Source: an uncultured Rickettsiales bacterium (GTDB lineage: Bacteria; Myxococcota_A; UBA796; UBA9615). Taken from it: a DNA stretch of 64,000 bases. The notes beneath the pieces are model-generated. The model saw only the letters and a list, made by a program, of their open reading frames with translations. It did not search any database and was not told the DNA's origin. Both the position numbers and the translations under genes were made by a program. Shown in pieces: positions 19,290 through 55,657 of the stretch. The stretch covers positions 8,458 through 72,457 of the forward strand of contig CAYFOA010000009.1 of NCBI GenBank assembly GCA_964344575.1. The letters are read 5' to 3'. Position 1 is the stretch's first letter; each line of letters starts with the position of its first letter.

Positions 19290-19902
19290 GCATCTGCCAG
19301 GGCGACGGCCCCTCGCTGCCGCCCCGCTTGTCCCCCGCGATGTCCGCGTTCGGGCGCTGCTCGGAGATGCCGTCGTAGTAGTAGCTCGGGAGCTCGCCGC
19401 AGTTCGTCGCGCGGAACCGCTCCTCGACCTCGCCGTAGAAGATCGACCCCTGGATGCGGTCGTCCGTGAACGAGGTGATCTCCGACGACCCCTCGTTCGA
19501 CGGTACGGGCACCCCCTCCTCGTCGTACCCGTTGATGAACGACGTGCACAGCGCGTCGGCCCACTGGTAGCTGTTGTAGGCCTCGCAGTCGGGCGAGTAG
19601 CGGGACGGGTAGTCCCCCTCCCACTCGCGCTGGTCGCCGCGGATCAGGTAGGCGAGCAGCCACTCGTTGTCGTCGTCGTTGAAGCCGTAGCCGGTGCCGT
19701 TCTCGCACCCGAAGTCGTCCTCCCGGGGGAGGAACAGGTAGAGCACCCACGCGTTGCTGTACGGGTAGTACCGGTACGCCGCGACGGCCTCGCCGTAGCT
19801 GCCCCCGATGCTGTCGGCGTTCGGGTGGTTGTCGCGCACCGGGGGGCACCCCAGCAGCGACGCGACGAGGACGGCCCACAGCGCGAGTCGGACGGACTTC
19901 AT
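19276..19902 (-). CDS. Hypothetical lipoprotein (Y/W/D/E-rich, 4 Cys)
   Basis: Signal peptide with a LLGC lipobox and protein-like composition. It overlaps the PilZ gene convergently by 14 nt. Confidence 0.6.
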   Translation of the reverse strand: MKSVRLALWAVLVASLLGCPPVRDNHPNADSIGGSYGEAVAAYRYYPYSNAWVLYLFLPREDDFGCENGTGYGFNDDDNEWLLAYLIRGDQREWEGDYPSRYSPDCEAYNSYQWADALCTSFINGYDEEGVPVPSNEGSSEITSFTDDRIQGSIFYGEVEERFRATNCGELPSYYYDGISEQRPNADIAGDKRGGSEGPSPWQMLRFR

Positions 19903-19954
19903 GGGCGGAGCCTACCGCGAACCGGACCGGTCGCCTCGCGTAGGATCGTGCCCC

Positions 19955-22900: not shown

Positions 22901-23703
22901 TGGGCGAGCAGTGGTACGTCGCGCTGGGCCGCGCGTGGAGCGCGCTGGGCTACACGTGGCTGGGGGAGCTGGCGACGTCGCGGTCGATGATCGAGGCGGG
23001 GATCGCCGAGGCGGAGCGGCGCGGCGACGGCTGGTGCAAGGCGACGTACTGGCTGGGGGAGTCGACGATCGCGCTCCTCGCGGTCGAGGGGGGCGAGGCC
23101 CGCGTCCGCGCCCTGCTGCAGGACGCCCGCGGCACGCTCGGCCCCCAGGACGCCGGCTGGGTCCAGTCCGCGTACAACGTCCAGTCCCTCGCGCTGGTGG
23201 TCTCCGAGGTGCTGCTGGACCTCTGGGAGGACGACGCCCTCGGCGCCTGGCACCGGCTGTCCGGGGAGTGGGGGGCGGTGCGGCGGAGCGGCTACCTGCT
23301 GTGCCGGTTCATCCGCGAGTGGGCCCGGTTCCGGCTGGGCGGCGCGGCGGTCGCGGCGTCGGCGACGGGAGGGCCCAAGGCGGACCAGCAGCGGCGGGTC
23401 GCGGGCCGGCAGGCGAAGGTCCTCGCCAAGGACAAGGGCCGCATCGGCGAGCCGCTGAGCCACCTCCTCCGGGGGGCGCTGGCGGCGCAGGCGGGGGACG
23501 TGGAGCAGGCGCGGACGCACCTCGTCGCCGCGGAGGGCGGCTTCGATCGCCTCGGGCTGCGCGGCCACCTGGCGGCGACGCGGGCGCGGATGGTCGCGCT
23601 GGGGATGGACGATCGCCGGACGCCGGCCCAGCGCTGGTTCATCGCCGAGGGGGTGCGGGACCGCGAGCGGTTCTGCCGGGTGATGGCCCCCGGCTTCCCC
23701 TGA
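19955..23703 (+). pseudogene. Ser/Thr protein kinase + AAA/P-loop NTPase + TPR-like helical domain (STAND-like regulator), frameshifted in a G7 run
   Basis: Kinase subdomains: FQGTDRFDVLGTLGMGGMGVVYRALD...VALKT, then HADVKPSNVLV, DFGLA and APEQ. The frame switches from frame 2 to frame 1 inside the G run at 20224-20230, where one missing G restores ...ELVEGGADMLSW.... This is followed by the P-loop GRSGIGKSHLIRHF and helical repeats. Confidence 0.8.
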
Positions 23704-24030: not shown

Positions 24031-26439
24031 TCAGAACTCGGCGCGCACACCGATCCACGGGCGAATCGGCAGCTGCCGGAAGATGTACGGCTCCGGAGGC
24101 TCGCCGTCCTCGCCGGCGCCGTAGATCCAGACGAACTGCCCCTGCGCGTACGTTGCGTTGAGGACGTCGAGGTAGACGGCGAGCTTGACCCGCTCCTTGA
24201 TGACGCGGAAGTGCTCGAACCGGAGCGACAGCTCCGTCCACGGGTTGTAGGACTCGCTGTTGTAGGCCTCGGGGACGACGTGCCAGCCGCCGCGGCCGTC
24301 GAGGTCGGGGATCGGCGTGACCGGGGTCCGCGGCCGCCCCGACCGGAGCTCCCACATCCCCGCGATCAGCCAGTTCCGCTTCCGCCCGATCTTCACCTCC
24401 CCCATCACCCGCAGCCCGTGGCGCTGGTCCCACGCCGGCGCGAACGTCTTCGGCCCCGCCTCGTTCAGCGGGTTGGTCCGCTCGGTGGTCAGGAGCGAGT
24501 ACGTGACGGCGAGCCCGACGCGGCCGCGGCGCATCGCGAAGAAGACGTCGATCCCCGACGCCTTCCCCGTCCCGATCGAGGCGTAGGCGGGGCCCCGCTC
24601 GACGGCCGCGCGGGTGTCCGGGTTGACGAGGAGCCGGTCGAGGACGCGATGGTAGGCCTCGACGCGGATCAGTCCCCCGAACGGCAGGAGCTGCTGGACC
24701 CCCGTCGACAGGTGGAGCGCCCGCTCGGCGCGCAGATCCTCTGCGCCGACGTCGGGGTCGAACAGCAGCGGCTCCCGCAGCGGCTGGTGTACGACGGCCC
24801 ACCCCGCCTTGAACGTCGTCATCGTGGGGGCCGTCACCGAGGCCCCCATGCGCGGCGACACGAGCACCTCGCCGGTGTTGTGCAGGGGCGTGACGCGGAC
24901 GCCGCTGCGGACGTTGATCGGCGTCCCGAAGAGCTGCTCCCAGTCGTCCTCCAGGTACAGCGCCAGCTCGGTCCACGCGCGGCTGCTGTCGAAGGTGAGG
25001 CTCGGCGCGCCGAGGTTCGCCCACGGCAGGGCGGCCCACGTCGGGGTGGTGCGGGGGTCCTTGATCGTCCCGTCGCCGCCGACGCTGAAGTACGCGAGGT
25101 CGACGCCGGCGCGGACGTGGTGCGTCTCCCCGACGCGCAGCTCCAGGTCGGAGCGGAACCCGGGCCGCCACGTCCGGATCTCCCGGGAGACCTCGAAGTC
25201 CGCGTCCTGGAGGCGGTTCTCGAAGTCGTGGGTGAAGTAGACGAGGTTCCGCCAGGTCACGTCGTCGTGGAGGCGCCACCGGGAGTCGAGCGCCGCCAGC
25301 GTCGTCCGAGCCCGCGTGTCGATCCCGTTCTCGAGGACCACGACAGCGTCCTCCTCGTCGCCGTCGGGGCTCGCCAGGGTCATGTGGTCGTGGGCGTGGA
25401 GCAGCGTGAACCGGAGCCGGTGCCGCTCGCCGCCGACCGTCACCCGCCCCAGGTACTCGCCGAACGCCATCCCCACGAACTGGTCGCTGAACAGCCCCAC
25501 CGCCCGGAGGAGCGCGAAGTAGGCCTCGAAGAAGGAGCGGCGGGCGCTGAGCAGGAACGTCGCGGGGGACCCCTTCGGGCCCAGCGGGCCGCTGACGTGG
25601 GCGCTGCCCATCGCCATGTTGAGGTCGATGATGCCGTCGACCTCCTCGCTGCTCCCGTCGATGTAGTGGACGTCGAGGCTGCCCGCGAGGCTGTCCCGCC
25701 ACGGCGCGGGCGGCGCGTCGGCGTAGAGCTTCACCCGGTCGGTCAGCTTCGGGTTGAACATCGTGAACGTCCCCCCGAGGTGGTTCGGGTTCAGGAGCTC
25801 GACGTCGTCCAGGTAGAAGGCGGTCTCGGTCGCGTCGCCGCCGCGGACGTGGAACAGGGCGAACATGTCGGTGTCGCTGACGACGCCCGGGAGCTGCCCC
25901 ACGACCTTGGCGACGTCCCCCATCGCGCCGGGGGCGAGCTCGATGTCCCGGCGGGTCAGCTCCCAGGAGCCGCTCACCGCCGACGCGTCGTGCTGCAGCG
26001 GCGCCCGCTCGACCTCCCGCCACGGCTTGCGGCCGATCACGACGGTCTCGTGGCCCACGAGGTCGCCCGCGTCGGCCTCCCCGACCTCGGGCTCGGGCTC
26101 GGGCTCGGGCGCGTCCGCCTCGATCAGCTTGAAGTGGAACCGGTAGTCGATGGCGATCGCGGCCTGCACGCCGTCGATCTCGGCGGGGACGAACTGCATC
26201 CGCCAGCCCGCCTCGACCGCCGCCGCGTCGAGCAGCGGGTGGAGCGACTCCACGACCTCGACCGAGTCCACCACCCCGTCCTCGTCGATCCCGATGCGGA
26301 GGAGGACGTCGCCCTCGATCCCCTCCTCCGCCACCTCCTCGGGGTAGAGGGGGAGGATCTCCTCCATCAGCACGGGCGCCTTCGTCAGGACCGGCTGCGC
26401 CGCGAGCACGAAGATCAGGGTCGGAATGGCCCGCAGCAC
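24031..26439 (-). CDS. TonB-dependent outer-membrane receptor with an N-terminal TonB C-terminal-like domain
   Basis: Signal peptide, then a TonB_C-like segment (PLYPEEVAEEGIEGDVLLRIGIDEDGVVDSVEVVES...LDAAAVEAGWRMQFVPAEIDG). A plug-like region and a long beta-barrel follow, ending in the aromatic terminal residue (RAEF). Confidence 0.75.
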   Translation of the reverse strand: MLRAIPTLIFVLAAQPVLTKAPVLMEEILPLYPEEVAEEGIEGDVLLRIGIDEDGVVDSVEVVESLHPLLDAAAVEAGWRMQFVPAEIDGVQAAIAIDYRFHFKLIEADAPEPEPEPEVGEADAGDLVGHETVVIGRKPWREVERAPLQHDASAVSGSWELTRRDIELAPGAMGDVAKVVGQLPGVVSDTDMFALFHVRGGDATETAFYLDDVELLNPNHLGGTFTMFNPKLTDRVKLYADAPPAPWRDSLAGSLDVHYIDGSSEEVDGIIDLNMAMGSAHVSGPLGPKGSPATFLLSARRSFFEAYFALLRAVGLFSDQFVGMAFGEYLGRVTVGGERHRLRFTLLHAHDHMTLASPDGDEEDAVVVLENGIDTRARTTLAALDSRWRLHDDVTWRNLVYFTHDFENRLQDADFEVSREIRTWRPGFRSDLELRVGETHHVRAGVDLAYFSVGGDGTIKDPRTTPTWAALPWANLGAPSLTFDSSRAWTELALYLEDDWEQLFGTPINVRSGVRVTPLHNTGEVLVSPRMGASVTAPTMTTFKAGWAVVHQPLREPLLFDPDVGAEDLRAERALHLSTGVQQLLPFGGLIRVEAYHRVLDRLLVNPDTRAAVERGPAYASIGTGKASGIDVFFAMRRGRVGLAVTYSLLTTERTNPLNEAGPKTFAPAWDQRHGLRVMGEVKIGRKRNWLIAGMWELRSGRPRTPVTPIPDLDGRGGWHVVPEAYNSESYNPWTELSLRFEHFRVIKERVKLAVYLDVLNATYAQGQFVWIYGAGEDGEPPEPYIFRQLPIRPWIGVRAEF

Positions 26440-26901: not shown

Positions 26902-29385
26902 GTGGCCGTCGCCGAGCTCGCGATCCCCCTGCCCGCGCCGGGCAGCTTCCACTACACCGTCCCCGACGATCTCGAGGAGTCGCTCCGCGTGGGCCACGTC
27001 GTCCACGTCCCGTTCGGGAGCCGGCGGCTCACGGGGTACGTCCTCGACCCCGACTCCGACGACGAGCTCCCCGACGGCACGAAGCTCCGCGCCATCGCCG
27101 GCCTGGCCCTCCCCGACCCGCTCTTCGGCGACGACGTCGTCCCCCTCTTCCGGTGGATCGCGCGCTACTACGCCCACCCCCTCGGCGACGTCGTCCGGAC
27201 GGCGCTCCCCGCGTCCACCCGGACGGCCACCCGGACGGTGGTCCGGCGCCTCCCCGAGGGGGCCCAGCCGTCGCTGCTCCACGACCCCGAGATCTCCGCG
27301 CTGCTCGGCCGCCTCGCCGCGTCGCCGTCGCACACCCTGACCCGGAACGCGCTGCTGCGGCGCGACAAGGTCCCCGCCGCGGCCATCGACCGCGCCGCCC
27401 GCCAGGGGCTCGTCGAGGTGCTCCAGGAGGAGGGCCAGCACGTCGCCCAGGTGCGGACCGAGCCGTGGTACGCGCTCAAGGACACGGCCCGCGCGACCAA
27501 GGACGCGTTCGCCCGCAAGGGGCCCGTCCGCGACCGCCTGATCGACTGGCTGGAGCGCTTCGGGCCCGTCTCCCGGGCGGCGCTGAGCGACGCGTTCCCG
27601 ACGTTCTCGGGGCCGCTGCGGCAGCTGCTCCAGGCGGAGCTGCTGGACGTCGAGGAGCGGCGCCTCGACCCGCTCGCGGCGGAGCGCGTGACGATCCTCG
27701 ATCGCGACCGCGTCCCCCACCCGCCGACGCCCGGGCAGCAGGCCGCGCTCGACGCGATCGCCCCGGCCCTGAACGGCGGCGAGTTCGCCTCGTTCCTGCT
27801 CCACGGGGTGACGGGCTCGGGCAAGACCGAGGTCTACCTCCGGCTGGCCGGCGACGTCCTCGCCGCCGGCGGCTCGGCCCTCCTGATGGTCCCCGAGATC
27901 GGGCTGACGCCGCAGTTCCTCGCCCGCTTCCGGGCGCGGTTCGGGGACGAGGTGGTCGGCGTCCTCCACAGCGGGCTCACCGACCGCGAGCGGTTCGACG
28001 AGTGGGTCCGCATCCGCGACGGGGTCGCGCGGCTCGTGGTGGGGCCGCGGTCGGCGGTCTTCGCGCCCGTCCGGGACCTCCGCCTCGTCGTCGTCGACGA
28101 GGAGCACGACGGCTCCTACAAGCAGGAGGACGGGCTCCGCTACAACGCCCGCGACGTCGCCCTCGTCCGCGCCTCGAAGGCCGGGGCGGTGGCCGTCCTG
28201 GGGAGCGCGACGCCGGCGCTGGAGACGTACGTCGCGGCCCGCGACGACGGGCGCCACACGCTCCTGCTGCTCCCTTCCCGGGTCGCCGGGCGGGCGATGC
28301 CGGACGTCGAGCTGGTCGACCTCCGCGAGTACCCCGTCGACGACCCCGACTCCCCCGCCGCGGCCTTGTCGCCGCCGCTGCGGGAGGCGCTGGAGGCGAA
28401 CCACGCGGTCGGCGGCCAGGCGATCCTCCTGCTGAACCGGCGCGGGTTCGCGACGACCGTCCTGTGCACGGCCTGCGGCGTCCACTTCCGCTGCGCCGAC
28501 TGCGACGTCTCGATGACGTACCACGCCCGCCGCCACGCGGTGATGTGCCACTGGTGCGGATCCTGGCAGCAGCTCCCGGACCGCTGCCCCACCTGCCACG
28601 ACCCCCAGTCGCTGAAGGCGGCGGGCCGGGGGACGGAGCGGCTGGAGGAGGAGATGCTGGCGCTCTGGCCGGACCTCCGGGTCGACCGGATGGACGCCGA
28701 CACGACGCGGTCGCGGGCGGGCCACCGCCGGATCCTCGACCGGTTCGGCGCCGGCGAGGTCGACGTCCTCGTGGGGACGCAGATGGTGGCCAAGGGGCAC
28801 GACTTCCCGAGGGTCACCCTCGTCGGGGTGCTGCACGCGGACGCGGCCCTGCACCTGCCGGACTTCCGCGCGAGCGAGCGGACGTTCCAGCTCGTCTCCC
28901 AGGTGGCCGGCCGGGCGGGGCGGGGGGAGCTGTCCGGCCGCGTCCTCGTGCAGACGTGGCACCCCGACCACCACGCGATCCGGCTCGCCCTCACGCACGA
29001 CTTCGTCGGGTTCGCGGAGCGCGAGGAGCGGCTCCGGCGGGGCCTGATGTACCCCCCCTTCAGCCGCCTCCTGATGTTCCGCGTCTCGGCGACGAACGAG
29101 CGCGCGGCCCAGCAGGCGGCGCGGCACGTCCGCTCCCGCGTGGACGAGGCGGGGCGGTCGGCGGCTCGGAGCAAGGGCGACCTCCGCGTGCTCGGGCCCG
29201 CCGTCTCCCCGATGTACAAGCTGCGCGGCCGGTTCCGGTGGCAGGTCCTCGTCAAGGGCGCGGACCACGGCGCGATCAGCCGGCTGCTCCACGCCCTCCA
29301 ACCCGATCGGTTGCATCAGGAAGTTGCGAAGGCAGGGCGCGGGGCTAGGCTGGCGGTCGACCGGGACCCGGGTTCCTTCCTCTAG
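26902..29385 (+). CDS. priA: Primosomal protein N' (replication restart helicase PriA)
   Basis: 827 aa with a DEAH-box helicase core and the PriA Cys-rich zinc-binding insert (CTACGVHFRCADC...CHWCG...CPTCHD). Confidence 0.9.
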   Translation: MAVAELAIPLPAPGSFHYTVPDDLEESLRVGHVVHVPFGSRRLTGYVLDPDSDDELPDGTKLRAIAGLALPDPLFGDDVVPLFRWIARYYAHPLGDVVRTALPASTRTATRTVVRRLPEGAQPSLLHDPEISALLGRLAASPSHTLTRNALLRRDKVPAAAIDRAARQGLVEVLQEEGQHVAQVRTEPWYALKDTARATKDAFARKGPVRDRLIDWLERFGPVSRAALSDAFPTFSGPLRQLLQAELLDVEERRLDPLAAERVTILDRDRVPHPPTPGQQAALDAIAPALNGGEFASFLLHGVTGSGKTEVYLRLAGDVLAAGGSALLMVPEIGLTPQFLARFRARFGDEVVGVLHSGLTDRERFDEWVRIRDGVARLVVGPRSAVFAPVRDLRLVVVDEEHDGSYKQEDGLRYNARDVALVRASKAGAVAVLGSATPALETYVAARDDGRHTLLLLPSRVAGRAMPDVELVDLREYPVDDPDSPAAALSPPLREALEANHAVGGQAILLLNRRGFATTVLCTACGVHFRCADCDVSMTYHARRHAVMCHWCGSWQQLPDRCPTCHDPQSLKAAGRGTERLEEEMLALWPDLRVDRMDADTTRSRAGHRRILDRFGAGEVDVLVGTQMVAKGHDFPRVTLVGVLHADAALHLPDFRASERTFQLVSQVAGRAGRGELSGRVLVQTWHPDHHAIRLALTHDFVGFAEREERLRRGLMYPPFSRLLMFRVSATNERAAQQAARHVRSRVDEAGRSAARSKGDLRVLGPAVSPMYKLRGRFRWQVLVKGADHGAISRLLHALQPDRLHQEVAKAGRGARLAVDRDPGSFL

Positions 29386-46593: not shown

Positions 46594-46759
46594 GGTCCAG
46601 AGTACGTCTTTTCGTGGTCAAGCCCGGCCGGGCGGGGCCGATGAGACGGTCGTTCGCATCCACACGAAACGGCACCCCCGTACGAAAGGCGGGCTCGCAA
46701 AGCCACTGGCCTACGGCGCACGACGCTACGGCTCGAAGGGCTACCGAACTGGAGAGCAC

Positions 46760-47758
46760 ATGCTTGCCACCCCGACGCGCCTCGGCGCGCTCGCTGCCCT
46801 CACCCTCATCCCCGCCATCGCGCTCGCCGGCTCCTCGGAGGTCGACTTCGTCGCCGTCGTGGACGTGCTCGACCTCGACAACCAGCTCGTGGAGGACGCG
46901 GGCCTCCTGGACTACGACGGCCCCGTGGTCGTCGCCCACACCGCCCCCAACGAGGACGGCGTCCTCGACTACTGGCTCCGCTTCGACCACGTCGCCGAGG
47001 CGGGCGCGCCGCTGGCGGGGGTCGCCGAGCTGTCGATCCTCGACGAGCGCTACGACGAGATGCCCGCGATCCTCACCGACCGCCTCGACGCGGTCGCCAT
47101 CGTCGACTCCCTCGCCGGCCAGCTCGCCGCCGAGGACGTCCGCGCGATCATCGATCCGATGTACGTCGACGAGCGCGCCCTCGAGGAGCTGAACGCCTGG
47201 GACGCCGACTCGCTCGTCGCCGTGGGCAAGGACTTCGAGCACGCGGTGCGGTCGTCCTCGGGCCTCGCCTTCGCGCCGCCGAACCGGACCACCGCGGCCT
47301 CGCTGGAGGCGTCCGTGGCCCCCTTCTACGCGGACGACTACCGCGGCCTGCTGTGCGAGGGCGCGATCCTCGACACCTGCGCCATCGCCACGCGCTTCGC
47401 GGGCGGCCTCTGGATCGACTGGGTGGTCGGCCCCGCAGGCGGCGACGGCAGCGGCTCCAACGCCGACGCCGGCGACGACGTCGAGACCGAGGTCGAGGAG
47501 ACCGAGGCGGACGACGCCGACGAGGAGGCCGAGGCGGACACGGCCACCGGCTCGGCGCCGACCGCGGACGAGACCGACGAGGCCAAGGGCGGCGACGACA
47601 CGGCCGTCGGCAGCACCGAGGTCGACGCCCCCGAGGCGCCCGAGGAGGACCACGACACGGACGTCCACCTCGACACGCACGTCCCCTCGGACACGCACGT
47701 CGACGAGGAGACCGAGGTCGACGCCCACTGGGCCCCGCCCCCGGCCCCCGCGCACTAG
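46760..47758 (+). CDS. Secreted acidic hypothetical protein
   Basis: Signal peptide (ALTLIPAIALAGS). The C-terminal third is Asp/Glu/Thr-rich low complexity. Confidence 0.55.
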   Translation: MLATPTRLGALAALTLIPAIALAGSSEVDFVAVVDVLDLDNQLVEDAGLLDYDGPVVVAHTAPNEDGVLDYWLRFDHVAEAGAPLAGVAELSILDERYDEMPAILTDRLDAVAIVDSLAGQLAAEDVRAIIDPMYVDERALEELNAWDADSLVAVGKDFEHAVRSSSGLAFAPPNRTTAASLEASVAPFYADDYRGLLCEGAILDTCAIATRFAGGLWIDWVVGPAGGDGSGSNADAGDDVETEVEETEADDADEEAEADTATGSAPTADETDEAKGGDDTAVGSTEVDAPEAPEEDHDTDVHLDTHVPSDTHVDEETEVDAHWAPPPAPAH

Positions 47759-47852: not shown

Positions 47853-49337
47853 ATGGGCGATCGTCAGTTCCTCAACTACATCGACGGCGAGTGGGTGGCG
47901 GGCTCCGGCACGGACCCCATCGCGGACGTCAACCCGGCCGACACGCGCGAGATCGTCGGCTACGCGACCGACTCCGAGGCGGCGGACGTGGACGCGGCGG
48001 TGGCCGCGGCGAGCGCCGCGTTCGCGGCGTGGCGGGCGACCCCGGCGCCGAAGCGGGGGAAGATCGTCCAGGCCGCGGGCCGGCTGTACGAGCAGCGGGC
48101 GGCCGAGATCGGAGAGGTCCTCACGCGCGAGGAGGGGAAGATCCTCGCGGAGGCGAAGGGCGAGGTGCAGAAGGGGGCCAACCTCGTCGACTTCCTCTCC
48201 GGCGAGGCGCGCCGCCTGAACGGCGAGACGGTCCCGTCGGAGATCCCCAACACGTTCGCGTACACGGTCCGCTGCCCGCTCGGGGTGGTGGGGCTGATCA
48301 CGCCGTGGAACTTCCCCATGGCGATCCCCGCGTGGAAGATCGCGCCGGCGCTGGTGGCGGGGAACACGGTCGTCATCAAGGGGGCCGAGCAGACGCCGTG
48401 GACCACCGAGCTGGTGGTCCAGGCGTTCATCGACGCGGGCGTCCCGCGGGGGGTCCTGAACATGGTCCAGGGGCGCGGCCGGACGGCGGGGGCGGCGCTG
48501 GTCGATCACCCCGACGTGGCCGCGATCTCGTTCACGGGCTCGACGGAGATCGGGCGGCACATCTGGGCGCGGGGGGCGTCGCTGGGCAAGCCGGTGCAGT
48601 GCGAGCTGGGGGGGAAGAACCCGATCATCGTGCTCGCGGACGGCGACCTCGACATGGCGGTGGCGGCGACGGCGAAGGGCGCGTTCGGCTCGACCGGTCA
48701 GCGCTGCACGGCGACGTCTCGGGCGATCGTGGACCGCCGGATCCACGACGAGTTCGTGGAGCGGGTCGCGGCGGAGGCGAAGAAGGTGATCCCGGGCAAC
48801 GGGCTCGACCCGCGCACCACGATGGGGCCGTCGGTCGACAAGGAGCAGTTCGGGAAGGTCCACGAGTACCTCGACATCGGCGCCGCCGAGGGCGTCGAGG
48901 TCATCTGCGGCGGCCGCCGCGCGAGCGACGGCGCGCTGGAGTACGGGCTCTTCACGGAGCCGACGGTCTTCGACGGCGTCACCCGCGACATGCGCGTGGC
49001 CCGCGAGGAGATCTTCGGGCCCGTCCTGTCGGTCATCGAGGTGGACGGGATCGAGGAGGGGCTGGAGGTCGCCAACGACGTCGAGTTCGGGCTGACGTCC
49101 AGCGTCTACACGAACGACGTCAACAAGGTCTTCCAGTACATCGACCACATCGAGACGGGGATGCTCCACGTCAACTCGCCGACCATCGGCGGCGAGGCGC
49201 AGCTGCCGTTCGGCGGCATGAAGAAGACGGGCGTCGGGCCGCGCGAGATGGGGAAGACCGCGATCGAGTTCTTCACCGAGTGGAAGACGGTCTACATCGA
49301 CTACAGCGGCGGGTTCCGCGGCGGGAACCTGTACTAG
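47853..49337 (+). CDS. NAD(P)-dependent aldehyde dehydrogenase
   Basis: The ATG at 47853 follows the GGAGG. ALDH motifs ELGGKNPIIV and GQRCTA (catalytic Cys). Confidence 0.9.
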   Translation: MGDRQFLNYIDGEWVAGSGTDPIADVNPADTREIVGYATDSEAADVDAAVAAASAAFAAWRATPAPKRGKIVQAAGRLYEQRAAEIGEVLTREEGKILAEAKGEVQKGANLVDFLSGEARRLNGETVPSEIPNTFAYTVRCPLGVVGLITPWNFPMAIPAWKIAPALVAGNTVVIKGAEQTPWTTELVVQAFIDAGVPRGVLNMVQGRGRTAGAALVDHPDVAAISFTGSTEIGRHIWARGASLGKPVQCELGGKNPIIVLADGDLDMAVAATAKGAFGSTGQRCTATSRAIVDRRIHDEFVERVAAEAKKVIPGNGLDPRTTMGPSVDKEQFGKVHEYLDIGAAEGVEVICGGRRASDGALEYGLFTEPTVFDGVTRDMRVAREEIFGPVLSVIEVDGIEEGLEVANDVEFGLTSSVYTNDVNKVFQYIDHIETGMLHVNSPTIGGEAQLPFGGMKKTGVGPREMGKTAIEFFTEWKTVYIDYSGGFRGGNLY

Positions 49338-49792
49338 GGGACAGCGAGGTAGCCCTCGAGGTTGTACTTCCGCGTCCCCGAGGTGGGGTTGCGGAACCGG
49401 ACCGTCGAGCCCGCCGTGAAGGTCACGTGCCCCCGTCCGGCGCTCAGGTACCCGCCGGTGTTCGAACCCCCGCCGCAGTACCCGGCGTAGGTCGCGCCGT
49501 AGACGCGGGTCCACTCGTTCCCCACCGGGTCGAGCTCGTTCATGTTCACGTCGCCGTTCATGCACAGCGACGTCATCACGAACACGCGGTCGGCGGGGAC
49601 GGTGTAGACGTCGAAGTGAGCGCTGGCGCCCAGCGATCCGGCGAAGTCGAGCCACGGGTGGGCGCCGCCGGTGACGACCGGACCCAGCGCCTGGGCGCGG
49701 GCGTCTCCGCCGGACCGGTGGAGGGTGAGGCTGAACAGGAGCAGGGACGTGGCCGCGACGAGGGCGGCGAGGGCGAAGATGGACTTGTGCAT
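49334..49792 (-). CDS. Small secreted protein, paralog 1 of an unrecognised family (GPVVTGG...YTVPADRxFV...GYLAxP)
   Basis: 152 aa with a signal peptide. GGAGG precedes the ATG. It shares collinear motifs with the genes at 49836-50291 and 54604-55056. Confidence 0.7.
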   Translation of the reverse strand: MHKSIFALAALVAATSLLLFSLTLHRSGGDARAQALGPVVTGGAHPWLDFAGSLGASAHFDVYTVPADRVFVMTSLCMNGDVNMNELDPVGNEWTRVYGATYAGYCGGGSNTGGYLSAGRGHVTFTAGSTVRFRNPTSGTRKYNLEGYLAVP

Positions 49793-49835
49793 GGAGGCCT
49801 CCGGGCGCCGATCCTACGCGGCCCCCGGCGCGCCG

Positions 49836-50291
49836 TCAGGGGGCCGCGAGGTAGCCCTCCAGCGTGTAGTCGACCTGGTTGCTGTACGTGTTCTGGAGGC
49901 GCACCGTGGTCCCGGCGGCGAACGTGACGTGGCCCCGTCCCTGGGCGAGGTAGCCGCCGGTGTTGGTCCCCGCGCACAGCGCCGCCGTGGTCCCCCCCTC
50001 GAGCTTGAGGTTGGTGATCGACGACACCAGCTCGCGCAGGTCGAGCGTCGAGTTCGACGTGCACATGCCCGTCACCACGAACACCCGGTCCGCGGGGACC
50101 GTGTAGAGGTCGACGAAGGCGTTGCCCGCGACCGTTCCGGAGAAGTCCTGCCAGGGGTGGGCGCCGCCGGTGACGACGGGACCGGCCGGGTGGGCCTGGG
50201 CGACGCCGGCCTCGCGGTAGTCGGCGAGGGCGAAGATCAACAGCGAGGACGCCGCGACGAGGCCGGCGAGGCTGAGGATGGTCTTGTGCAT
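49836..50291 (-). CDS. Small secreted protein, paralog 2 of the same family
   Basis: The true start is the ATG at 50291 (MHKTILSLAGLVAASSLLIFALA), with GGAGG upstream. The remaining 1260 codons of the track ORF 49836..54083 are an artefact antisense to the MCR/Kelch gene. Confidence 0.7.
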   Translation of the reverse strand: MHKTILSLAGLVAASSLLIFALADYREAGVAQAHPAGPVVTGGAHPWQDFSGTVAGNAFVDLYTVPADRVFVVTGMCTSNSTLDLRELVSSITNLKLEGGTTAALCAGTNTGGYLAQGRGHVTFAAGTTVRLQNTYSNQVDYTLEGYLAAP

Positions 50292-50345
50292 GGAACCTCC
50301 AGAGGCGGATCCTACGCGGGGCGCGTTCCGTCGTAAGGTCGTCCG

Positions 50346-52820
50346 ATGATGCGGCGGGCGAGCGTGATTCTGGCGGCGGCGCTCCTGAGCGGGTGCGGCT
50401 GTGCGGACGGTCCCGACCAGCTCGAAGTCGTCATCGAGCCGGCGGCGCCCACCGCCGCCGACGCCCTCACCACCGTCGTGACGTGGGCCGGCGACGACGT
50501 CCCCGCCGAGGTGCTCGTCGGGCTCCGGTGGCAGGTGGACGGCGCGGACGTGGACGACCTCACCGAGGAGTCGGTCCCCGCCGGGCGCACCACCGAGGGG
50601 GAGACCTGGCGCGTCATCGCGACCCCCACCCGGGACGGCGTCGAGGGACGAGCCGCCGTCGACGAGGTCGTCATCAGCGCGGCCGGCGACGACGACGACG
50701 TGACCGACGACGACGACGTCACCGACGACGACGACTCCGGGGACGACGACGACTCGGCCCCGATCGACCTCGACGGCGACGGCGTCCCCGTCGGCGAGGA
50801 CTGCGACGACGAGGACCCCGCCAACTTCCCCGGCAACGCCGAGGTCTGCGACGGGGCCGACAACGACTGCAACGAGCTCGCGGACGCCGATCCCGACGGC
50901 GAGGTCGACGGCGACGGCGACGGGGCGCTCAGCTGCGCCGATCCCGACGACACCGACGACACCGTCTACCCCGGCGCACCCGAGCTGTGCGACGGCCTGG
51001 ACAACGACGGCGACGGCAGCCTCGGCCCCGACGAGGTCGACGGCGACGGCGACGGCTTCCTCGCCTGCGAGGAGGCGGACGACACGAACGACACCGTCTA
51101 CCCGGGCGCTCCGGAGCTCTGCGACGGGCTCGACAACGACGGCAACGGCACCCCCGACGCCGATCCGGACGGCGAGGTGGACGCCGACGGGGACGGGTCC
51201 CTGTCCTGCGAAGACTGCGACGACGCCGACGACGCCAACTTCCCCGGCAACGCCGAGGCGTGCGACGGGGCGGACAACGACTGCGACGTCACCACCGACG
51301 CCGCAGGCGGCGAGGGCGACGCCGACGGCGACGGGTCGCTGGGCTGCGCCGACTGCGACGACGGCGACGCCACCAGCTACCCCGGCGCGCCGGAGCTGTG
51401 CGACGGGCTCGACAACGACTGCGACACGGTGATCACCGGCGAGTCCGATGGCGACGGGGACGGCTTCCTCGCCTGCGAGGACTGCGTCGACAGCGACGAC
51501 GCCAACTTCCCCGGCAACCCCGAGGTCTGCGACGGGCAGGACAACAACTGCAACGGCGTCCCCGACTTCGACGCGGACGGCGAGGTGGACGGGGACGGGG
51601 ACGGCGCCCTGTCCTGCGAGGACTGCGACGACGACGAGGACGAGGCGTTCCCCGGCAACCCCGAGGTCTGCGGGGATTCGATCGACAACGACTGCGACGG
51701 CGACACCGACACCGACACCGACGCCGACGGCGACAGCTACTTCGACGAAGCCTGCGGCGGGACCGACTGCGACGACGCCGACGACACCGTCTACCCCGGC
51801 GCCCCCGACCCCGACGACGGCATCGACCAGGACTGCGACGGCGACCCCGACGGCGCCGACGCCTGGTCCGAGCTCAGCCCCGCCGGTGACACCCTCCCCG
51901 CATCGATGTACGCCGCCGGGGTGTGGGACCCCGTCCAGGGCCGCGTCCTCCTCGTCGGCGGGCAGACGTACTACGACCTCCTCGACGGGGTGTTCGCCTA
52001 CGACCCCGCCACCGACACCGTCACGGAGCTCGCCGTCACCGGGGGCCCGCCCCCCGCCCGCCTCGGCCACACCGTGGTCGTCGACACGGACGACGAGCGG
52101 CTCCTCCTGTTCGGGGGCCAGGGCTTCTACGACCTCTACGCCGACGTCTGGGCGCTCGACCTCAGCGTGCCCGCCGGCGCCTGGACCCAGCTCGCCCCCA
52201 CCGGCACCCCGCCCGCCGCCCGGGCCTTCCACGCGGCCGCCTACGACCCGACGTTCGACCGGATGGTCGTCTACGGCGGCACCGGCTTCCACGACACCTA
52301 CGGCGACACGTGGGAGCTCGACCTGGGCACCACCGACGGCGCCTGGACCGAGCTGCTCCCGTCGGGCGACGATCCGCTCCCGCGGACCGGCCACGGGTAC
52401 GCCTACGACGCCGGCGACAACCGGCTGTTCATCGGCGGCGGGGCGACGTTCCACGATCTCGGCGACTCGATGTACGTGTGGGAGCTCTCCAACGGCCTCG
52501 ACGGGGTGTGGAACGAGGTCACGCCGAGCCTGGGGACGCCGGATCCGGTCGTGGCCGGCGCCTGGGCGTGGGACCCGCTGCTGGAGCGCGTCGTCCAGAT
52601 CGGGGGTCAGACGTGGCACGACCTCCTGCTCGAGCCGCAGGCGGTCCAGTACAACCAGCTGGGGCAGCCGGAGTGGTTCGGCCTCGCCCCCGCGGGCGAC
52701 ACGCCGCCGGCGCGCCGGGGCGCCGTCAGCGTCTACGACCCCGACGACAACGTCCTCTACCTGGTCGGCGGGCAGACGCACTACGACCTGCTCGCGGACG
52801 TCTGGGCGCTGGAGTTCTAG
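50346..52820 (+). CDS. Lipoprotein with Myxococcus-type cysteine-rich repeats (MCR, putative metal-binding) and C-terminal Kelch beta-propeller repeats
   Basis: Lipobox LLSGCGC and poly-Asp tracts (DDDDVTDDDDVTDDDDSGDDDDS). About 9 repeats of CDDxDxxxFPGxxExCDGxDNDC. Then Kelch-like blades (GGQxxYDLLxDVWALD repeated). Confidence 0.82.
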   Translation: MMRRASVILAAALLSGCGCADGPDQLEVVIEPAAPTAADALTTVVTWAGDDVPAEVLVGLRWQVDGADVDDLTEESVPAGRTTEGETWRVIATPTRDGVEGRAAVDEVVISAAGDDDDVTDDDDVTDDDDSGDDDDSAPIDLDGDGVPVGEDCDDEDPANFPGNAEVCDGADNDCNELADADPDGEVDGDGDGALSCADPDDTDDTVYPGAPELCDGLDNDGDGSLGPDEVDGDGDGFLACEEADDTNDTVYPGAPELCDGLDNDGNGTPDADPDGEVDADGDGSLSCEDCDDADDANFPGNAEACDGADNDCDVTTDAAGGEGDADGDGSLGCADCDDGDATSYPGAPELCDGLDNDCDTVITGESDGDGDGFLACEDCVDSDDANFPGNPEVCDGQDNNCNGVPDFDADGEVDGDGDGALSCEDCDDDEDEAFPGNPEVCGDSIDNDCDGDTDTDTDADGDSYFDEACGGTDCDDADDTVYPGAPDPDDGIDQDCDGDPDGADAWSELSPAGDTLPASMYAAGVWDPVQGRVLLVGGQTYYDLLDGVFAYDPATDTVTELAVTGGPPPARLGHTVVVDTDDERLLLFGGQGFYDLYADVWALDLSVPAGAWTQLAPTGTPPAARAFHAAAYDPTFDRMVVYGGTGFHDTYGDTWELDLGTTDGAWTELLPSGDDPLPRTGHGYAYDAGDNRLFIGGGATFHDLGDSMYVWELSNGLDGVWNEVTPSLGTPDPVVAGAWAWDPLLERVVQIGGQTWHDLLLEPQAVQYNQLGQPEWFGLAPAGDTPPARRGAVSVYDPDDNVLYLVGGQTHYDLLADVWALEF
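50770..51850 (+). repeat. Tandem array of about 105-120-bp coding repeats (MCR units) inside the lipoprotein gene
   Basis: The motif ttccccggcaacgccgaggtctgcgacgg...gacaacgactgc recurs at about 50821, 51241, 51501 and 51651. Confidence 0.6.
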
Positions 52821-54607
52821 GGCTCCCAGGCGGGGTCGGGGAGGACCTTCGGGCCGGTGGCGCCGAGCGTGATCGTGATCCCCAGGCCGAGCCCCGCGAT
52901 CCCGGCGGTCACCGCCGTCGCCGCGCCGAACCGGTCGGTGCGGGTCCGGGCGTCGCCGAGCTCGGCCCAAGCGGCGTCGATCGAGGCCTGCCCGGCGCCG
53001 TTGTCGACGAGGTCCTGGTAGGCGGTCTCGGCGCCGGCCTCGTCGGCCGCGGCGAGGGCCGCCGTCGTCCCCAGGATCCCCGCCACGACGCCGCTCCCGA
53101 CCGCCACGATCGCCGTCGGCAACGGCCGCAGCGCCCGCTCCCGGGCGACGATCGCGCGCTCCTGCTGCCAGACCTCCCACCGGGTCTGCACCGCGCCCAC
53201 GCCGGGCATCGCCGGCCAGCCCACCGTCCGCGCGTTGACCGCCCCGGGCTCGATGATGAGCGACTCCCGCAGCTCCCCCAGGGTCGGGTGGGTGACCGTC
53301 AGCAGCCCGCGCCCGCCGAGCACGCCCTCGAGCCGGACGGGGTCGGCGAGGAGCACGCCGGTGACGGGGTCGAGGGAGCCGACGCCGCCCGGGACGTGGA
53401 GCTCGGTGGCCCGGTCGTCCCCCGCCAGCCCCTCGATCTCGAGTGACACCTGCGCCCCCGCGGGGAGCGCCGACAGCGTCAGCTTGGCGGGGAGGCGCGG
53501 CGCGGTCTCGAACCGCACCGTCTCGTCCCGGGTGACGTCGAGCTCGTAGCGGAGCGTCCCGTGTTCGGCGGACACCTCCAGTGCGACCGCCCCGGCGGTG
53601 ACCACCTGCGACCCGCCGACGGCCTCGAACTCGCCCTCGCTCCCCCACCCCGTCACGGTGATCCCCTCGACCAGCGCGACCTCCAGCCGGCCGACGCCGA
53701 CGTAGGTGGGGACGAAGTTCAGCGCCCGCGTCTCGCCCGCCGCCAGCGGCGGGACGTCGATCTCCTCGACCTGCAGCCCCCGCCCGGACGAGGTGAGCAC
53801 CAGCGGGAGCCCCACCGGGAGGTGCCGGAAGGCGGCGACGTTGCCGGGGCGGGCCTCGGGCTCCTGGACCTCGCGACCCCACCGCAGCTCGAGCCGCGGC
53901 ATGGCGTCCCCGGTGGTCACGGGGATGACGGCGACCTCGACCACGCCGAGCTCCCGCTCGAGGGCCGCGATCATGGGGCCGACGCCCGGCGCGTCGCCGC
54001 CGAGCTCGAGGTAGCGCCGGTAGGCGAGCGCGGCCTCCCGGTGCTCCCCCGCGCAGCGCGCCGCGTCGCCCGACAGCCGCCACCCGTCGGCCGCCTCGGG
54101 CGCGGCCTGGGTCAGCTCGGTGGCCGCCGCCCGGGCCGACAGGCAGTGGCCGGCCTCCAGCGCAGCCTCGACCCGCGCCCGGTACGGCGCCGGATCGAGG
54201 CCCGTCTGGAGCCCCGTCTCGACGACCTCCACCGCCGGACGTCGCGGCCCCCGCGGCTTCGCGGAGCCCTCCTCGGCGGCGGCCAGGCGCGCGAGCGCGG
54301 CCTCCGCCTCGGGCCGCGCGCTCCCGCCGGGGGCGAGCTCGAGGTAGGCGGAGAACAGGACCTCGGCGAGGGCGTGGTCCCCGAGCTGCTCGTAGGCGAG
54401 CCCCTTGACCACGAGCGCGGGGTAGAGGCTCGGATCCAGGCGGAGGGCGGACTCGGCCGAGGTGACCGCGCGCTCGGCGCGCCCGTCCGCGAGCTCGGCC
54501 CGTGCGTAGTCGAGCTGGCGGGAGGCCTCCTCCTCCGCCCCGCCCGCCGTCGCTGTCGCCGGCAGGAGCAGCGCGACGAGCGCCCCGATCGTCAGCAGCC
54601 GCCTCAC
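52817..54607 (-). CDS. Exported TPR-repeat protein with two C-terminal hydrophobic (TM-like) segments
   Basis: The GTG at 54607 overlaps the stop of the upstream paralog-3 gene (GTGA). Signal peptide RRLLTIGALVALLLPATATA, TPR-like N-terminal region, beta-rich middle, and hydrophobic stretches AIVAVGSGVVAGILGTTAALAAA and AVTAGIAGLGLGITITLGA. The stop shares CTAG with the convergent MCR/Kelch gene. Confidence 0.6.
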   Translation of the reverse strand: MRRLLTIGALVALLLPATATAGGAEEEASRQLDYARAELADGRAERAVTSAESALRLDPSLYPALVVKGLAYEQLGDHALAEVLFSAYLELAPGGSARPEAEAALARLAAAEEGSAKPRGPRRPAVEVVETGLQTGLDPAPYRARVEAALEAGHCLSARAAATELTQAAPEAADGWRLSGDAARCAGEHREAALAYRRYLELGGDAPGVGPMIAALERELGVVEVAVIPVTTGDAMPRLELRWGREVQEPEARPGNVAAFRHLPVGLPLVLTSSGRGLQVEEIDVPPLAAGETRALNFVPTYVGVGRLEVALVEGITVTGWGSEGEFEAVGGSQVVTAGAVALEVSAEHGTLRYELDVTRDETVRFETAPRLPAKLTLSALPAGAQVSLEIEGLAGDDRATELHVPGGVGSLDPVTGVLLADPVRLEGVLGGRGLLTVTHPTLGELRESLIIEPGAVNARTVGWPAMPGVGAVQTRWEVWQQERAIVARERALRPLPTAIVAVGSGVVAGILGTTAALAAADEAGAETAYQDLVDNGAGQASIDAAWAELGDARTRTDRFGAATAVTAGIAGLGLGITITLGATGPKVLPDPAWEP

Positions 54608-55056
54608 GGCTGGGCGAGGTAGCCCTGGAGCGTGTACTGCGTCCCGTTGCCCCAGCCGAGCTGGACGCCCGTCCCCGGGGCGAAGGGGATGCGCGCCCGC
54701 CCCGTCACGACGAAGTTGTCGAAGCGGGGGTCGTTGACGCCGTACGTGCAGGTCAGCCACATCCCCCGGATCTTCGGCGTCGTGACGCTCCCGACCTCGT
54801 ACACCGGGCCGTTGGTGCTGGAGCCCTGGTCGGCGCACAGCCCCGTGAGGACGAACGTCCGGTCGGCGGGCACCGTGTAGACGATCTCGTTGTCGGTGGT
54901 CGTCGTCCCCGCCACCGACACCCAGGGGGCCTCGCCGCCGGTGACCACCGGGCCCGTGAACTGGGCGTTCGCGGCCGGCGTCGTCTGCAACAGGTATCCG
55001 GTCGCGGCGATCACGGCCGCGACGGCGAACAGAAGGGCGGGCAAGCGGTCGAGCAT
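54604..55056 (-). CDS. Small secreted protein, paralog 3 of the same family
   Basis: 150 aa with a signal peptide and GAGGAGG before the ATG. Motifs GPVVTGGEAPW, YTVPADRTFVLTGLC and LQGYLAQP. Confidence 0.7.
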   Translation of the reverse strand: MLDRLPALLFAVAAVIAATGYLLQTTPAANAQFTGPVVTGGEAPWVSVAGTTTTDNEIVYTVPADRTFVLTGLCADQGSSTNGPVYEVGSVTTPKIRGMWLTCTYGVNDPRFDNFVVTGRARIPFAPGTGVQLGWGNGTQYTLQGYLAQP

Positions 55057-55097: not shown

Positions 55098-55622
55098 TCA
55101 GGCCTCCTTGGCGGCCTCGAGCTTCGCGCTGCAGTTGCCGCAGCAGGTGAACACGGTCTTGCCGTCGATCTCCTGCTTGGGGCTGTTCTCGGTCACCTGG
55201 AAGACCACGCCGCTCATCGGGCAGCGGACCAGGGAGCCGACCTTGGCGTCCTTCATCTCGACGATGTCGGACTCGGCGTACTCGCCCTCGTAGGCGGCGC
55301 CGGCGCAGCTCTTGTGGCAGTCCTTGTCGGACGTGTCCTTCGGCGCCTCGGCGGCCTCGCCGGCGTCGGCGGTGGCCGTCGTGGTGGCCGCGCTCTTGGA
55401 GTACGGGCAGGGCTTGTCGCAGTCCTTGCCGGACGCGTCCTTGGGGGCGGCCTCGGCCTCGGCCTCGCCCGCGTGGGCGACGGAGACGATGCCCGCGCCC
55501 TCTCCGTCGGAGCAGGGGCAGAACACGGCGATCCCGACGCCCGTGCCGACCAGGAGGGTCAGGCCGGTGGCGGCGGAGATGAGGGGCTGGGCGGAAGCGA
55601 AGGCGATGAGGCTCTTGAACAT
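55098..55622 (-). CDS. Secreted Cys-rich protein with a C-terminal YHS/TRASH-like metal-binding domain
   Basis: Signal peptide, N-terminal CPCSDGEGAG, CDKPCPY and CHKSC motifs, then RCPMSGVVFQV...FTCCGNCSAKLE. Confidence 0.55.
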   Translation of the reverse strand: MFKSLIAFASAQPLISAATGLTLLVGTGVGIAVFCPCSDGEGAGIVSVAHAGEAEAEAAPKDASGKDCDKPCPYSKSAATTTATADAGEAAEAPKDTSDKDCHKSCAGAAYEGEYAESDIVEMKDAKVGSLVRCPMSGVVFQVTENSPKQEIDGKTVFTCCGNCSAKLEAAKEA

Positions 55623-55657
55623 GGCGCGAATGGTAGCGTCACGCGCGGAGGAGATCG

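Follow-up and report, generated by a model that had tools for sequence, protein, structure and literature searches.

Three small paralogous proteins with a predicted jelly-roll fold encoded around a Kelch lipoprotein gene of an uncultured bacterium

Within a 64,000-nucleotide (nt) stretch of the genome of an uncultured Rickettsiales bacterium (GenBank assembly GCA_964344575.1, contig CAYFOA010000009.1, positions 8,458 to 72,457 of the forward strand; this whole stretch is referred to as the window), three small paralogous proteins, P1, P2, and P3, are encoded on either side of the gene for a lipoprotein with a Kelch propeller head. The paralogs belong to a protein family that is real but rare and uncurated, and the link between genes of this family and Kelch genes is likewise real and conserved, so that their products very probably act together in the cell envelope. 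According to the reading favored here, which is given an even chance, the small proteins would be jelly-roll subunits that are exported and partner the Kelch head; a conserved pole of the domain would dock to the head or oligomerize, and a variable pole would serve paralog-specific recognition. The binding as such, like any function downstream of it, is what we infer from the data described below.

The three genes are located on the minus strand at 49334..49792 (P1, 152 amino acids (aa)), 49836..50291 (P2, 151 aa), and 54604..55056 (P3, 150 aa), each encoding a signal peptide followed by a domain predicted to be a jelly-roll. P2 and P1 form a tandem pair with P1 in second position, and P2 is divergent from the Kelch lipoprotein gene. 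The proteins are collinear, with 56% identity between P1 and P2 and 36-41% between P2 and P3 (BLASTP E 3e-22). Scanning of the 64 kb in six frames with the family hidden Markov model (HMM) detects exactly three copies, namely P1 (E 8.7e-46), P2 (E 2e-46), and P3 (E 1.4e-41), and the open reading frames (ORFs) lie exactly at the coordinates given. The GC content at third codon positions (GC3) is 0.95-0.98 (0.95 for P1), which is typical for real genes, and that of the window as a whole is 72%. Common to the three proteins are the motifs GPVVTGG..PW, YTVPADR.FV, GR[GA]...F, and a C-terminal [EQ]GYLA.P. A GGAGG sequence is found 5-6 nt 5′ of each ATG (49802-49798 for P1, 50300-50296 for P2, and 55066-55062 for P3), and the stop codon of P3 (54606-54604) overlaps, in the GTGA at 54607-54604, with the GTG start (54607-54605) of a gene encoding a tetratricopeptide repeat (TPR) protein. 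The original prediction, made from the letters of this DNA, had described three collinear paralogs with signal peptides, strong GGAGG ribosome-binding sites, and shared motifs, the third of them being translationally coupled to the TPR gene, and in all these points it was borne out. In a tree, which is shallow, P1 and P2 cluster together and with the relative P0005, and P3 groups with P0009 of locus L018 (58% identity), in a lineage separate from P1/P2 and older. Judging from the same shallow tree, locus L002 may carry one copy of each of two lineages.

The gene lying between the copies (50346..52820, plus strand) encodes a lipoprotein of 824 aa, composed of a lipobox (LSGC), an N-terminal domain, an acidic linker, eight MopE Cys-rich repeats forming a stalk, and a six-bladed Kelch propeller forming the head, with the protein ending in ...ALEF. 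In Pfam, it is matched by PF11617 (E 1.5e-48) and by Kelch families (up to E 1.7e-38), PF24681 reaching 132.6 bits (cutoff, 50) and Kelch_3, Kelch_4, and Kelch_1 also scoring above their cutoffs; six GG...D.W.L blades are readable. The lipobox, the repeats, and the blades thereby corroborate the Cys-rich repeat (MCR)/Kelch lipoprotein that had been proposed at this place. It is the product of the sole Kelch gene in the window, and no toxin, enzyme, or catalytic family was found for its head in Pfam or NCBIfam.

The pairing of the two genes recurs elsewhere. For the close subfamily, eight contigs are informative, and on seven of these a family gene directly adjoins the gene of an orthologous six-bladed Kelch protein. 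The Kelch gene comes first in L001 (followed after 11 nt by two family genes), in L002 (1 nt, two family genes), in L006 (one family gene), in L007/the JGI contig with P0152 (19 nt, one family gene), and in L018, where a MopE-Kelch gene is followed after 50 nt by the P3 ortholog. L008 shows the reverse order, the family gene preceding a MopE-Kelch gene by 9 nt, and in the window P2 and the Kelch gene diverge, their ATGs being 54 nt apart, and P3 is one gene away. The lone exception is the P0005 contig, on which a tandem pair is followed by a truncated gene that is unreadable. The Kelch partners of L001, L002, L006, L007, L008, and L018 are 40-49% identical and collinear, all ending in L-[EQA]-F. 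The linkage has been kept while order and orientation changed, and irrespective of whether a MopE stalk is present. No description of a Kelch-jelly-roll pairing was found in the searchable literature.

Regarding the family itself, P1, P2, and P3 match no family in Pfam or NCBIfam at E≤1, and none of the 73 aligned relatives matches a Pfam family at E≤0.01; there is also no match in PHROGs (best E 0.19) or among PDB sequences. The family is therefore unrecognised in these four resources, as had been anticipated. A word-indexed homology search with one paralog in 5.8 billion proteins returned four matches, which would have suggested an orphan family; this reading was dropped, since an exhaustive HMMER profile search of 1.84 billion cluster representatives (clusters at 50% identity) returned 203 at E≤1e-3, 73 of them at E≤1e-10. 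Most of the relatives consist of a single domain and have 135-160 aa, some being tandem two-domain forms, and among the 150 relatives listed no informative domain, and no Kelch domain, is fused to the family domain. One hit, P0100 (a FecR/anti-sigma protein of 1519 aa), was disregarded, as its match covered no more than a short, low-complexity stretch of the profile. With a narrower alignment, one family locus was detected among 185,579 species-representative genomes, and in a metagenome collection only L002 was found again; no relative was present among 2.9 million viral contigs. Most relatives are metagenomic; the known sources are marine, namely, an oxygen-deficient-zone water-column assembly and a TARA scaffold, and members occur on contigs of about 70% GC as well as of about 42% GC. 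In three assemblies (L012-L014, 42% GC), the gene of a distant member, P0158, lies between gap-pgk-tpiA-secG and a convergent fur gene, a housekeeping setting that differs greatly from that of the Kelch-linked subfamily.

The AlphaFold2 model of P2, calculated from the 73-sequence alignment, has a mean predicted local distance difference test (pLDDT) score of 90.7, with 97-98 in the core, and contains eight strands; an earlier run with five sequences (pLDDT 69.7) was not used. The N-terminal signal helix is followed by a linker containing GPVVTGGxxPW, at pLDDT 58-80, and the fold class of the modeled domain is clearly a jelly-roll β-sandwich. In structural comparison, the highest scores were obtained for the turret proteins C381 of STIV (9.3) and gp30 of HFTV1 (9.2), followed by the endospore appendage subunit Ena1B (8.1), subtilisin C-terminal domains (8.0), PirA and GOLD domains (about 7.8), and C1q/TNF domains (about 6.3). 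Foldseek searches against the PDB gave weak matches only (PliG, cupins, P-domains; E 1e-3 or worse), and modest matches to small phage virion proteins were obtained with the same program. On top among the PDB matches were the PliG periplasmic lysozyme inhibitors, albeit weakly (E 1.2e-3, TM score 0.41) and with no match in sequence. The modeled fold thus falls into a known class, yet membership in a known family does not follow from these structural matches. The suggestion of a TNF- or C1q-like β-sandwich in the original prediction stands as far as the jelly-roll fold class is concerned; membership in the TNF/C1q superfamily was rejected, given that there is no Pfam match and that C1q/TNF domains are not the closest structural neighbors. 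Membership in the Ena/DUF3992 family was likewise rejected (no match to this domain of unknown function (DUF) in Pfam; no Cys in the N-terminal peptide). So was a cupin metalloprotein, with no conserved His or Glu among the invariant or near-invariant columns and cupin matches in Foldseek at E 4e-3 or worse; the only position at which His is common is the variable penultimate one, 150 (30 of 73 members).

All three proteins start with a positively charged n-region, a hydrophobic segment about 19 residues long, and an AXA-type site, and in the alignment of 73 members position -3 is occupied by A, S, V, T, or G and position -1 by A, G, or S without exception. The number of Cys residues in the mature part is always even, with none in 26 members, two in 45, and four in two. 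Cys 77 and Cys 106, which are mostly both present or both absent, make up a covarying core pair, and in 65 of the 73 members the Pro of GY[LY]AxP is the very last residue. Small residues at -3 and -1, even Cys counts, and a fixed C-terminus together fit cleaved, disulfide-bonded extracytoplasmic proteins. Export of the small proteins via Sec is supported by these features, and signal peptidase I would probably process them at the conserved AXA site, with the disulfide being predicted from the Cys pattern. Efficient cleavage is slightly less certain for P1 and P2, since their c-regions are unusually long (about 10-14 residues).

An entropy map of 20 close-subfamily sequences reveals that the least variable parts of the proteins are not the core strands. 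Instead, conservation is concentrated in the N-terminal mature peptide (0.80 bits), the VPADR turn (0.45 bits), the turn around G127, and the C-terminal strand with the tail. The N-terminal peptide, of consensus x3-GPxV[TS]GGxxP[WY] and devoid of Cys, occurs once per protein, also in two-domain members. Highest variability (2.2-2.9 bits) is found in the loops 55-58, 79-82, 98-121 (indel-rich), and 135-139, plus strands 4-5, where none or almost none of the residues are identical among P1-P3 (12% in the long loop). In a canonical jelly-roll, the N- and C-termini and the CD and GH turns are located at one pole and the BC, DE, FG, and HI loops at the other. With the entropy map laid over this topology, the domain appears to have a conserved and a hypervariable pole.

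Immediately downstream of P3, and coupled to it, the TPR gene (52817..54607, minus strand) encodes a protein of 596 aa with a signal peptide, TPR repeats (Pfam TPR_16, E 1e-07), a β-rich middle part, and two C-terminal transmembrane (TM) helices (about 495-521 and 561-584, from hydropathy analysis), in keeping with the TPR protein with C-terminal TM segments described earlier. It is convergent with the Kelch lipoprotein gene, with a stop overlap of 4 nt. Homologs are full-length and 36-43% identical. In L020 and L021, such a homolog is again convergent with the gene of a homologous MopE lipoprotein (L020, 11873-14749, minus strand; L021, 10963-13824, minus strand), which has a lipobox, an N-terminal domain, and a MopE stalk as in the window protein (50% identity over 500 aa) and a right-handed β-helix (PF13229) as the head instead of the Kelch propeller. 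A family gene is absent from the 21.8 kb of L020/L021, where a thioesterase gene precedes the TPR gene; in L018, the P3 ortholog directly follows the Kelch gene and has no overlapping downstream start. Sequence comparison of these lipoproteins points to head-domain swapping, Kelch versus β-helix, on a conserved stalk. From the L020/L021 locus it follows that the TPR-TM protein is tied to the stalked lipoprotein and the small jelly-roll proteins to the Kelch head. Of the dedicated module with conserved neighbors that had originally been envisaged, the Kelch link is thus retained, and the TPR-TM protein, which tracks the MopE-stalked lipoprotein, is lost as a conserved neighbor of the small proteins, as is the Cys-rich protein dealt with below.

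Based on these data, the following scenario is proposed as the most likely one. The small proteins would be exported via Sec, and signal peptidase I would then cleave at the AXA site, releasing a mature part of about 115 aa that would fold into a single eight-stranded jelly-roll, usually with one disulfide. The subfamily of P1-P3 would be a dedicated partner of the six-bladed Kelch propeller, which in this bacterium sits on the MopE-repeat stalk of a lipid-anchored protein. Binding to, or assembly on, the Kelch head in the periplasm or at the cell surface would lead to a hetero-oligomeric envelope complex; ligands for the propeller had been among the possibilities named in the original prediction. 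The face used for docking or oligomerization would be the invariant pole formed by the GPxVTGGxxPW peptide, the VPADR turn, the G127 turn, and the C-terminal GYLAxP, and the opposite pole, with four hypervariable loops including the indel-rich loop 98-121, would provide a binding surface specific for each paralog. One Kelch anchor would thereby acquire alternative specificities from three paralogs of two old lineages. The TPR-TM protein would belong to the stalked lipoprotein, perhaps for its handling or inner-membrane anchoring, and not to the small proteins.

Several points weigh against a Kelch-docking role of the small proteins. The Kelch gene of the window is not co-transcribed with any of the paralogs, and a fusion of Kelch and jelly-roll domains was not seen among the 150 relatives listed. 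The assignment of the two poles depends on canonical topology, and the conserved pole, including GPxV..G..P, is kept in the more distant members P0158, P0085, and P0087, which are not Kelch-linked; the pole may therefore serve folding or self-association rather than docking to the propeller. Finally, the loci were found starting from the small protein, and the sample of contexts is small, comprising the eight informative contigs.

Among the other explanations, the one that survives best, though rather unlikely, is that the small proteins act independently as secreted lectin- or adhesin-like binders or as soluble periplasmic carriers, with the Kelch neighborhood reflecting co-regulation in a common envelope process and not a complex. 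A hypervariable loop pole would suit ligand binding, the structural neighbors include carbohydrate-enzyme accessory β-sandwiches and cargo-binding GOLD domains, and the separate transcription of P1-P3 and the Kelch gene in the window as well as the unrelated contexts of distant relatives would be accounted for. However, the spacers of 1-19 nt to the Kelch gene in four loci suggest tight co-expression, which is often a sign of stoichiometric partners, the linkage has outlasted rearrangements across lineages that are only 32-58% identical, and the family gene is absent where the head is not Kelch.

Alternatively, the small proteins could be fiber or surface-layer subunits, with the jelly-rolls polymerizing via an N-terminal donor or connector strand, as in Ena fibers or donor-strand pili, and the Kelch lipoprotein acting as anchor or assembly platform. 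The strongly conserved peptide that precedes the domain would be suited to such a task, as it is not part of the fold, given its lower model confidence (pLDDT 58-80), and as it is present only once per protein even in tandem two-domain members; tandem paralog pairs, furthermore, are common, like major and minor subunits in pilus operons. The peptide is, however, devoid of Cys, whereas the Ena connector works via disulfides, and the two Cys residues of the family covary as an intradomain pair that is missing in a third of the members. In addition, there is no Pfam DUF3992 match, and the locus contains no usher, chaperone, sortase, or other assembly gene. Polymerization of this kind is therefore considered unlikely.

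Least probable is a toxin/immunity or enzyme/inhibitor pair, in which the lipoprotein with its swappable head would be a polymorphic effector (cf. SitA) and the small proteins periplasmic inhibitors or immunity proteins of the PliG kind: the arrangement of a large gene followed by one or two small genes with spacers of 1-50 nt in five loci (L001, L002, L006, L007, L018), the difference in heads between homologous lipoproteins (Kelch versus β-helix), the position of PliG at the top of the Foldseek matches, and the resemblance of multiple paralogs to orphan immunity arrays are outweighed by the lack of a catalytic family match in the lipoprotein, by Kelch heads that are conserved orthologs and not hypervariable, by a gene order that is reversed in L008 and divergent in the window, by the weakness of the PliG match, and by distant family members without any such partner, and the Kelch propeller is, to our knowledge, not a toxin fold.

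Returning to the jelly-roll proteins as partner subunits of the Kelch head, a more far-reaching proposal can be added, which is speculative and has little probability as it stands. The Kelch/MopE lipoprotein would be a docking platform at the cell surface, and the small jelly-rolls would be exchangeable tips, plugged into the propeller with their conserved pole and recognizing prey, kin, or particle surfaces with their hypervariable loops. This would amount to a two-part receptor resembling a viral spike, with a repertoire set by the number of paralogs. A variant of this idea would have the small proteins polymerize from the Kelch anchor into an Ena-like fiber.

Comparison with known systems reveals several partial likenesses. 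The viral turret or decoration jelly-rolls (STIV C381, PDB 4ind; HFTV1 gp30, PDB 8qpg) and the phage "virion structural proteins" of about 107-110 aa in BFVD are 8-21% identical to the family, whose genes, in contrast, are chromosomal and encode Sec signal peptides, with no PHROG match and no viral-contig relative. The genes gyrB (2630-5080), gyrA (8243-10840), and priA (26902-29385), all on the plus strand, are present in the window, which is therefore core chromosome and not a mobile element. This setting, together with the negative searches in PHROGs and viral contigs, led to the rejection of a phage origin. From the Bacillus Ena subunits (DUF3992; PDB 7a02, 9i0y, 8pdz, 9t3p), whose N-terminal connector is defined by cysteines, the family differs in having neither a DUF3992 match nor an N-terminal Cys; moreover, the host has a high GC content and is of a Gram-negative type, with TonB and a lipoprotein encoded in the window, and a Kelch lipoprotein is the partner. 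TNF/C1q-like domains (PDB 5hba, 4d7y, 6z6v, 4zch) have in common with the modeled domain the jelly-roll topology, a similar size, an extracellular location, and variable recognition loops.

As for the larger partner, stalked receptors and lipoproteins with Cys-rich repeats are known from myxobacteria, namely, TraA-type receptors and the modular lipoprotein toxins SitA (PMC8546572). The Kelch lipoprotein is similar to these in its lipid or membrane anchor, its stalk of Cys-rich repeats, and a distal domain that varies between homologs (Kelch versus β-helix). It differs in the MopE type of its repeats (PF11617), in the conserved Kelch head in place of a PA14 or toxin domain, and in the lack of a TraB or SitI-type partner. 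The likeness is architectural only. Myxobacterial Kelch proteins of the glyoxal-oxidase type, FbfB and MXAN_5265, have also been described (PMC4937300). Like FbfB, the window protein is a secreted bacterial Kelch-repeat protein in a similar organism; FbfB-type proteins, however, carry the glyoxal oxidase N-terminal domain PF07250, which is not matched in the window protein, nor is any NCBIfam entry, and no small jelly-roll partner has been described for them.

Concerning the sequences around the paralogs, an identical leader, CGCGTAGGATC, is found 5′ of P1 (49820-49810) and P2 (50318-50308), 7-8 nt before GGAGG, and the duplication therefore took in upstream sequence. The TAGGAT in its core may represent an operator or an element of the -10 type. 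The leader was not seen 5′ of the homologs in L018, and between 49000 and 56000 no promoter or terminator consensus was detected beyond chance. The divergent intergenic regions are very short, with 54 nt between P2 and the Kelch gene (50292-50345) and 35 nt between the gene for the Cys-rich protein and that for an NCS1-type permease (55623-55657). No sigma-70 consensus was found in either of them; promoters must therefore overlap, sit inside neighboring genes, or yield near-leaderless transcripts. Convergent genes share 4 nt of their stop codons at 49334-49337 (aldehyde dehydrogenase/P1) and 52817-52820 (Kelch lipoprotein/TPR-TM), with no terminator in between.

On other contigs, remnants and further neighbors of family genes were noted. 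In L008, an otherwise implausible ORF (9900-9985, plus strand) terminates with ...FGYLAHP* 15 nt before the start of the family gene; a decayed tandem copy upstream may have left this C-terminus as a relic, with no more of it detected by the HMM. A MYXO-CTERM signal suspected in an ORF of L008 was not confirmed by NCBIfam, and the Myxococcota-like features are no more than suggestive. On the JGI 3300072015 contigs of P0152 and P0005, a pair of unannotated genes (about 312-313 aa and about 447-470 aa) is located on the opposite strand beside the family gene and may be a further conserved neighbor. The P0152 contig carries an aldehyde dehydrogenase gene about 4 kb from this pair, and such a gene is also present in the window.

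Upstream of P3 by 41 nt, on the same minus strand, lies the gene of the Cys-rich protein (55098..55622, 174 aa, GC3 0.98), which has one N-terminal hydrophobic segment. Its former label "YHS-like" was not confirmed, as no YHS match is found in Pfam at E≤1; there is no significant match in Pfam or NCBIfam and no homolog in the other loci examined, and its membership in the module is doubtful. On the far side of P1, a c-di-GMP-I riboswitch is predicted at 46661-46748 (plus strand), matching RF01051 at full length with 44.9 bits against a gathering score of 35. It is located 11 nt upstream of a gene (46760-47758) for a very acidic signal-peptide protein of 332 aa without a family match, which is followed by the aldehyde dehydrogenase gene converging on P1. 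The neighborhood may be under c-di-GMP control. Further genes of the window encode a large Ser/Thr kinase (19825-23703) and, at 24031-26439, a protein with a TonB C-terminal domain.

Summarizing, if the pairing of the two genes reflects a physical complex, a new two-component envelope module would be at hand in poorly studied, mostly uncultured bacteria, which are marine where their source is known. This module would consist of a lipid-anchored propeller on a Cys-rich stalk and of small, diversifying jelly-roll subunits. It would offer a first way into the function of bacterial Kelch lipoproteins and of the very abundant but little understood MopE-repeat proteins, and a further family would join the few small bacterial jelly-rolls used outside the cell, such as Ena fibers and C1q-like exosporium proteins. 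The family alignment and the HMM would allow the definition of a new DUF-type family, and the predicted layout of the poles gives targets for mutagenesis.

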